Of a stretch of DNA of 10,638 bases, positions 6,846-6,984 are shown one piece after another. The notes beneath the pieces were generated by a model that was not told the origin of the DNA, searched no databases, and was given only the letters and a program-made list of their open reading frames with translations. The first letter of the stretch is position 1; every line of letters begins with the position of its first letter. Source of the stretch: Candidatus Heimdallarchaeota archaeon (lineage in GTDB: Archaea > Asgardarchaeota > Heimdallarchaeia > JABLTI01); assembly GCA_030614005.1 (NCBI GenBank), contig JAUWKS010000093.1, positions 1 to 10,638 on the forward strand. The letters are read 5' to 3'. The position numbers and the translations under genes are program-made.

Positions 6846-6984
6846 CTGGCCCTAACTCAGCTTGGCTAGAGTGCTCGGCTGTAGACTTAGTTCGCTCCAA
6901 TGAACCGTGATTTGGAGTCAGCCCGTATTCGACTGCTAGACAGTAACCGAGATGCCCCGAGTTCAAATCTCGGGGGCCAGACCA
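6846..6984 (+). tRNA. trnY: tRNA-Tyr(GUA), archaeal type, with a 61-nt intron at position 37/38 and encoded CCA
   Basis: Acceptor CTGGCCC/GGGCCAG (C1-G72), discriminator A6981, CCA 6982-6984; D stem ACTC/GAGT; anticodon stem CTCGG/CCGAG, anticodon GTA 6881-6883; variable loop ATGCC; T arm CCGAG-TTCAAAT-CTCGG. Exons 6846-6884 and 6946-6984. Confidence 0.97.
6885..6945 (+). ncRNA. tRNA-Tyr intron with BHB splice motif and internal K-loop hairpin; candidate H/ACA-like guide RNA
   Basis: BHB: CUGU (6879-6882) pairs with ACAG (6940-6943), with bulges AG^A and UA^A. Stem CUCCAA/UUGGAG is capped by U.U, tandem sheared G.A/A.G and loop ACCGU. The intron itself is near-certain; the confidence value is for the guide function. 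Confidence 0.65.

Follow-up and report, generated by a model that had tools for sequence, protein, structure and literature searches.

A conserved K-loop element in the tRNA-Tyr intron of Asgard archaea is a candidate H/ACA-like guide for pseudouridylation of its own precursor

The analysed stretch of DNA (the window) comprises 10,638 nucleotides of contig JAUWKS010000093.1 from the Candidatus Heimdallarchaeota archaeon assembly GCA_030614005.1. DNA sequencing runs holding the window stem from cold-seep and marine-sediment metagenomes. On the forward strand, positions 6846-6984 contain a gene for tRNA-Tyr(GUA) that has a single canonical intron at 37/38 and encodes the CCA end; it was read by hand, and ARAGORN with introns allowed (option -i) gave the same ends. 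Hand reading and the orthologues in relatives show a C1-G72 pair, A73, and normal D, T, and anticodon arms. The anticodon is formed by G6881, U6882, and A6883, G37 is located at 6884 and A38 at 6946, and the anticodon loop CUGUAG|A is split after G37 by an intron of 61 nt (6885-6945). Default ARAGORN and the Rfam tRNA model missed the gene in the window entirely, and ARAGORN with introns allowed recovered gene and intron but wrongly labeled the gene as Asn. This is of practical relevance, as the automatic annotation of such genomes probably lacks the tRNA-Tyr gene. At the start of the window, an open-ended reading frame (1-729) showed a weak match to Ribophorin I (E 6.6e-4, below the Pfam cut-off); it could be a eukaryotic-type oligosaccharyltransferase subunit, in keeping with an Asgard genome.

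The same genome carries a degenerate second tRNA-Tyr copy with an intron (L017:1501-1635, equivalent to contig C77, 21379-21506). This copy has the anticodon AUA, its 5' acceptor strand is missing and its K-loop stem is full of mismatches; a separate fragment of the tRNA-Tyr 3' end is located some 70 nt upstream of it, and the arrangement resembles a pseudogene or a recombination scar at a tRNA gene. In many orthologous tRNA-Tyr genes (L005, L007, L008, L011, and several loci of the families designated f2, f3, and f14) a second intron of about 30-45 nt is located in the T arm or T loop. It is absent from the tRNA-Tyr gene of the window, and some copies in relatives form hairpins of their own.

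The exon-intron junctions of the 37/38 intron form a canonical bulge-helix-bulge motif. Two 3-nt bulges (A36 G37|A6885 and U6944 A6945|A38) accompany a central helix of 4 bp (6879-6882 with 6940-6943), with cleavage after G37 and before A38. The 3' strand of this helix, ACAG (6940-6943), pairs with C32-U35 and contains the triplet ACA. Most members of the genus have GCAG or GCAU in the equivalent position, f3 has GCGG, and f2 has GUAG or GUGG. A further splicing helix, h', is formed by 6886-6891 and 6935-6939 (CUUAG/CUAG in the window versus CUUUG/CAAAG in the genus), whereas other families have loops of 4-6 nt such as GAAA at this place.

The intron also contains a hairpin (6894-6918) whose upper or "GA" stem consists of ten stacked layers (6894-6903 with 6909-6918) and is capped by a K-loop. 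From its base, the hairpin comprises the closing pair G6894.U6918, six Watson-Crick pairs up to A6900-U6912, a U.U pair, and above it the sheared pairs G6902.A6910 and A6903.G6909 with a loop of 5 nt. The K-loop (U-GA-ACCGU-GA-U, 6901-6911) is a putative L7Ae binding site. Directly 3' of the hairpin lies CAGCC (6919-6923; the 3' guide), the exact complement of the tRNA bases G30-G34 (6877-6881), and directly 5' of it lies UC (6892-6893; the 5' guide), which pairs with the first intron base A6885 (intron +1) and with G6884 (G37). The only unpaired bases in the resulting pocket are U35, the proposed target of pseudouridylation, and A36 (6882-6883). A variable linker follows (6924-6939) with a mini-hairpin CG-UAUU-CG (6924-6931) and a CUGC (6933-6936). 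In the minimum free energy (MFE) fold this region pairs locally once the guide helix forms, and CUGC can replace the anticodon loop as pairing partner of the ACAG strand, although the combination CUGC...GCAG is kept within the genus only. A first reading of the window, made from the sequence alone (the sequence-only reading), had correctly placed the hairpin, both flanks, the U35-A36 pocket, and the mini-hairpin, as well as the ACA at 6940-6942, 21 nt after the stem. No comparable K-loop hairpin was found in the other tRNA introns of the same genome (24-60 nt). The tRNA-Arg(TCT) gene (contig C59, 25690-25795) has a 28-nt intron holding GAUGAUCUGAG, with adjacent C-box-like and D-box-like motifs, which may represent a further small K-turn or K-loop of intron origin.

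The fold in which both guides are paired (the guide fold) and the splicing fold are mutually exclusive; in the former, the h' strand 6886-6891 doubles as the loop of the 2-bp cis helix. For anticodon arm plus intron of the window, the guide fold was the unconstrained MFE structure (-18.2 kcal/mol), and the best splicing-competent fold reached -17.4 kcal/mol when optimized and -14.9 kcal/mol as drawn. Among 51 homologues the guide fold was the MFE structure in 20, and the mean difference between structures with the guide fold enforced and those in which only the anticodon stem was enforced was 1.2 kcal/mol. Such near-equal predicted energies would suit a switch from modification to splicing.

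Orthologues retrieved by BLAST from the genus and the family all keep the arrangement UCGC-hairpin-GUCAGC. Of the 82 genomes of the class, 39 carried the element according to a covariance model built from 14 sequences (f1 10/11, f2 16/30, f3 9/22, f7 2/2, f4 1/12). A second model, built from 30 sequences, was applied to 151 genomes sampled across the phylum and found it in 42 of them; the matches outside the class fell into three families (f14 22/25, f22 1/1, f27 1/2), and f11 (0/26) and f17 (0/19) gave none. Divergent versions that the models scored weakly or missed occur in f4 and f6. The 37/38 intron itself was present in Asgard tRNA-Tyr of every family for which the sequence following G37 was read (20 fetched genes plus the element-bearing homologues), and every one of the 52 distinct copies of the element is located inside the 37/38 intron of its own target.

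In these 52 homologues the K-loop and both flanks are conserved and covary. U35 and A36 are free and the G37-C pair is present in all of them. Intron +1 is always paired with the base two before the hairpin (A-U 34, U-A 15, G-C 2, G-U 1), and all four states of this pair occur within one genus. The 3' guide pairs with G34 (GC 47, GU 5), U33 (U-A 52), C32 (C-G 51), G31 (GC 45, GU 7), and G30 (paired in 42), its changes being almost all C-to-U opposite G34, G31, or G30, besides one A opposite C32. CAGC is nearly invariant, and only the base opposite G30 is unpaired in as many as 10 of the 52. Three f6 species carry the guide CAGU where the tRNA has A31-U39, which represents a double compensatory change. 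The sequence-only reading had proposed that UC pairs with G37 and with the next A, being intron +1 in the precursor and A38 in the mature tRNA; G37 and intron +1 are borne out by the pair counts, but A38 is not, and this makes the precursor the substrate. Ribosomal RNA was considered as an alternative target. The assembly is devoid of rRNA genes, and the covariation with intron +1 identifies the precursor itself, not rRNA, as the pairing partner.

The closing pair of the hairpin is GU in 37, AU in 13, and GC in 2 homologues, six of its ten pairs covary with double changes, and the sheared G.A and A.G pairs are invariant. The covariation score of the whole structure was 0.378, compared to 0.136 after shuffling and at most 0.094 when the partners were slid. 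The upper stem has ten layers in f1, f2, and f3 (in some cases with one bulged base) and nine layers plus an unpaired base in the K-turn versions of f14, f4, and f6, the K-turn of f14 including a C-stem of its own. The introns of f14 and of some f2 members consist only of intron +1, a short loop, the two guide bases, the K-turn hairpin, CAGCC, and three further bases; here the lower stem is missing, and CAGCC also contributes to the splicing helix, in a shifted register with mismatches. Conservation with compensatory changes in 52 sequences from several families indicates that the arrangement is more than chance, and we consider it highly probable that the conserved element is a K-loop/K-turn hairpin which clamps its own precursor at the anticodon loop, around U35-A36.

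The tRNA-Tyr introns of f12, f16, and f24 (L236, L239, L241, L242) have no K-turn, but contain CAGCGGG, which is complementary to tRNA positions 31-34 and 27-29 and reads as a different way to unfold the anticodon stem. Its occurrence in families without a K-turn indicates that the anti-anticodon pairing is older and more general than the K-turn element.

Compared to canonical archaeal H/ACA RNAs, the element has the K-turn/K-loop in the upper stem (tandem G.A/A.G over U.U), an upper stem of ten layers (the equivalent of a 5-6-bp helix 2 plus K-turn; exactly ten in the window), and a target U that is unpaired together with the next base between two guide-target helices, both of which covary. 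Productive archaeal H/ACA guides have a GA stem of ten layers, any length change of which is deleterious (PMC4652768). It departs from them in three defining features. Firstly, the 5' guide forms only 2 bp instead of the usual ~5-8 nt, the 4-5 nt of the 3' guide being acceptable against 5-6 nt. Secondly, there is no lower stem of ~9 bp, since the 5-6-bp helix of the window is the splicing helix h', which does not exist in f14 and much of f2. Thirdly, the ACA of the window is 21 nt away instead of the 14-15 nt of an ACA/ANA box, is part of the central splicing helix, and reads GCA in most of the genus; across relatives the tail after the guide measures 3-23 nt and has no conserved box. From its sequence, the element is thus H/ACA-like, not canonical H/ACA. 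The sequence-only reading had interpreted the lower stem and the ACA as completing an H/ACA layout. This was rejected, as both are splicing helices that vary in relatives and are often missing, so that of the proposed H/ACA-like Psi35 guide the K-loop, both pairings with the precursor, the pocket, and the ten-layer stem are retained, whereas the lower stem, the ACA, and the A38 partner have to be given up. The CCA end of the tRNA as a substitute for the ACA in binding the PUA domain of Cbf5 was rejected as well: CCA is not encoded by the genes of f3, and the spacing within a folded tRNA does not fit. A box C/D guide of the pre-tRNA-Trp type would have RUGAUGA and CUGA boxes with guides of 10-12 nt, which are not found here. 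The intron has no terminal C/D boxes, and its UGA...UGAU is a single K-loop on a 7-bp stem with paired neighbors.

Genes of Cbf5, Nop10, and L7Ae were identified in the genome above curated cut-offs; a Gar1-like match scored 27 bits, below the Pfam cut-off of 29.3. An intron-containing tRNA gene (contig C1, 13901-14020) lies ~1 kb downstream of the Cbf5 match (C1, 12391-12732), and its ARAGORN label "Tyr(ata)" is almost certainly wrong. Two descriptor scans for canonical H/ACA sRNAs, against which the stem length could be calibrated, revealed no convincing case in the own genome, and the best descriptor match (contig C5, 41291-41350) was discarded because it lies inside a GTPase-like reading frame. 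Pus7/TruD was present in 142 of 151 genomes searched. The copy of the own genome is a 422-aa reading frame (L019:1456-2724, contig C20) with strong matches to solved TruD and Pus7 structures, and its DF-x-V-x-E motif reads DFKVEE. The catalytic Asp and the basic residue of motif IIIa (GG-x-I/L-K/R) are kept in Pus7 of every lineage examined, which led to the rejection of a defect of the Sulfolobales type. Motif II reads KDKT in the own genome versus KDKR or KDRR in most relatives, KDA-x in f3 and mostly KDKC in f14. Its pair after the Asp also varies in families that have no element and is canonical in f2, and hence does not track the element. Pus7 thus looks intact alongside the element, and no enzyme gap calls for a guide.

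Sequencing runs were also inspected for RNA evidence. Of 24 listed runs, 20 hold part of the stretch, and one of these is an RNA library, whose contigs showed no joints. One 151-nt contig, derived from a relative, covers 6861-6931 including intron sequence and could represent unspliced RNA or carried-over DNA.

The best explanation for these observations, which we regard as fairly probable, is that the intron serves as an H/ACA-like guide that recruits L7Ae and Cbf5-Nop10 for the formation of Psi35 on its own precursor, most likely in cis. From the sequences we infer L7Ae binding, Cbf5 as the enzyme, Psi35 as its product, and the following order of events. Before splicing, the anticodon arm would refold, with the intron's CAGCC pairing with G30-G34 and UC pairing with G37 and intron +1 in a helix of 2 bp, for which the first bases of the intron provide the capping loop. 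The two guide helices would abut the ten-layer stem that ends in the K-loop. L7Ae would bind the K-loop, and Nop10-Cbf5 (with Gar1) would dock at the distance fixed by the stem and convert the bulged U35 to pseudouridine. The RNA would then refold to the bulge-helix-bulge form and be spliced.

Several lines of evidence argue for this H/ACA-like reading. The pocket geometry matches to the nucleotide, with the target U and one further base free and both neighbors paired; both guides covary with their partners in the precursor; the stem length is maintained at ten layers (or nine plus a bulge) despite covariation, which conforms to the stem-length rule for productive guides (PMC4652768); the pairing scheme is that of the validated Sulfolobales trans guides for Psi35; Pyrobaculum provides a precedent for a guide that has neither lower stem nor ACA; and in the window the guide fold is the MFE structure, in a genome with Cbf5, Nop10, L7Ae, and Gar1-like genes. 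The distant ACA within a splicing helix and the missing true lower stem argue against it, as do the 2-bp 5' guide with a total pairing of 6-7 bp, which is below that used by trans guides, the intact-looking Pus7, the failure to find a convincing canonical H/ACA sRNA in the own genome, and the presence of CAGC(GGG) in K-turn-less families, where pairing alone does not imply an H/ACA particle. A further objection concerns the action in cis, which appears most likely from the sequences. The spacing between intron +1 and the 5' guide is 4-9 bases, with GAAA in some f2 genomes, and such short, hairpin-like capping loops argue for a cis fold in which the 2-bp helix stacks under the K-loop stem. In f6, however, the spacer is a single base, and the 5' flank is too near to intron +1 for this helix to form in cis.

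The main rival, which we judge rather unlikely, holds that the K-loop hairpin and its flank pairings stabilize a pre-splicing conformer and that Cbf5 is not involved. L7Ae would then serve as a chaperone or as a timer, delaying or checking the splicing reaction, or it would help to present the anticodon loop to a stand-alone enzyme, be it Pus7 for Psi35 or one acting on G37 or C32. A Pus7 that looks catalytically intact in all element-bearing lineages is consistent with this, as is the lack of the two features by which canonical guides anchor Cbf5, namely the ACA box and the lower stem. The mutual exclusion of guide and splicing folds at near-equal energy and the CAGC(GGG) pairing in Asgard tRNA-Tyr introns devoid of a K-turn also speak for it. 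However, such a conformer gives no reason why exactly U35 and A36 should be the sole free bases, nor why a stem length specific for H/ACA RNAs should survive many compensatory changes. As far as Pus7 is concerned, the guide fold base-pairs U33 and G34, which are part of its recognition sequence, and Pus7 of P. abyssi needs no intron (PMC2651775).

Alternatively, the excised intron, in linear or circular form, could be a stable small RNP that guides Psi35 in trans on other pre-tRNA-Tyr molecules, which appears improbable. The C/D guide in the tRNA-Trp intron, which has been reported to act in trans, is a precedent for such a mechanism. It would also account for f6, in which the 5' flank has retained its complementarity to G37 and intron +1 although a contact with intron +1 in cis is out of its reach, and in the genus of the window the excised intron can form a lower helix of its own. 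On the other hand, the guide-target pairing amounts to only 6-7 bp, the spacers separating intron +1 from the 5' guide resemble short hairpin loops (GAAA), which is what a cis fold predicts, and in the families with a 3-nt tail the excised intron would have neither a lower stem nor an ACA to stabilize a particle. Very improbable, and already disfavored, is an origin of the complementarity from the splicing motif, whose strand pairing with the anticodon loop would have been duplicated, or from chance beside an unrelated hairpin. In favor of this, 37/38 introns must carry a strand complementary to C32-U35, one f3 genome uses a second UCAGCC as this strand, and the 3-nt-tail families reuse part of CAGCC for the splicing helix. 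Against it, the pairing with G31 and G30 is kept (switching to U opposite A31) though splicing needs neither base, the covariation of intron +1 with its partner has no splicing role as intron +1 sits in a bulge, and the shifted register of CAGCC yields a mismatched, suboptimal splicing helix.

The H/ACA-like self-guide can be extended to a more far-reaching proposal, to which we hold only tentatively: the pre-tRNA-Tyr of many Asgard archaea may be a self-guided H/ACA substrate on which a minimal particle, built on the K-turn hairpin of the intron and free of ACA box and lower stem, forms Psi35 in cis ahead of splicing. The RNA-guided pseudouridylation described to date relies on separate guides acting in trans, the guides reported from tRNA introns direct C/D methylation only, and searches of the literature revealed neither an H/ACA-type guide encoded in a tRNA intron nor one acting in cis. 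If true, it would be the first pseudouridylation guide to reside in an intron as well as the first to act in cis, and a working guide of this kind would mean that Cbf5 can act on RNA lacking both ACA box and lower stem. The element also makes the old question of the function of the tRNA-Tyr intron testable in archaea.

Among known systems, the Sso1/sR115 family of Sulfolobales and Aeropyrum pernix shares the target, U35 of intron-containing pre-tRNA-Tyr (PMC2651775, PMC11077068). These trans H/ACA guides pair with the anticodon stem-loop upstream of U35, with G37, and with intron bases (PMC2651775), and deletion of sR115 abolishes the Psi35 modification (PMC11077068). As in the Asgard element, the 3' guide addresses the anticodon stem-loop just upstream of U35, the 5' guide addresses G37 and intron bases, and a K-turn or K-loop is placed at a fixed distance above the pocket. 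In contrast, Sso1/sR115 are separate trans genes with a full lower stem, an ACA 14 nt from the target, and longer guides, whereas the Asgard element resides inside the intron of its own substrate, has no ACA or lower stem, and pairs over 6-7 bp. Moreover, Sso1/sR115 occur where Pus7 has lost the lysine of motif IIIa, but the Asgard element coexists with an intact-looking Pus7.

Location in an intron is shared with the C/D guide in the euryarchaeal pre-tRNA-Trp intron and the C/D RNA in the tRNA-Met intron of Nanoarchaeum equitans (PMC3491384). Common to these systems are also L7Ae (putative here), complementarity to the own exons, and a guide fold that excludes the splicing fold, so that modification must precede splicing. 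However, the intron C/D guides direct 2'-O-methylation by fibrillarin-Nop5; in the Asgard element no C/D boxes flank the guides, and the stem capped by the K-loop separates two short guides, an arrangement known from H/ACA RNAs.

Similar features are found in the H/ACA-like sRNAs of Pyrobaculum (sR203-sR210; Bernick 2012 via PMC4652768), which likewise consist of a single hairpin with a ten-layer GA stem, a K-turn, and unstructured, single-stranded flanking guides. They have no lower stem, and their ANA box is degenerate, displaced, or often missing (PMC4652768). All of these traits recur in the Asgard element, but the Pyrobaculum sRNAs are stand-alone, trans-acting RNAs with longer guides, whereas all 52 Asgard copies are embedded in their substrate.

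A final comparison is with eukaryotes. Here, Psi35 formation in tRNA-Tyr requires the intron-containing precursor, and no other eukaryotic tRNA intron is as conserved as that of tRNA-Tyr. The eukaryotic modification is carried out by Pus7, a protein-only enzyme, and the introns have no K-turn. Asgard archaea are held to be the closest archaeal relatives of eukaryotes, and an evolutionary link between the two systems is a matter of speculation; if the Asgard self-guide is real, it could be an archaeal forerunner of both the intron dependence of eukaryotic Psi35 and the unusual conservation of the tRNA-Tyr intron.
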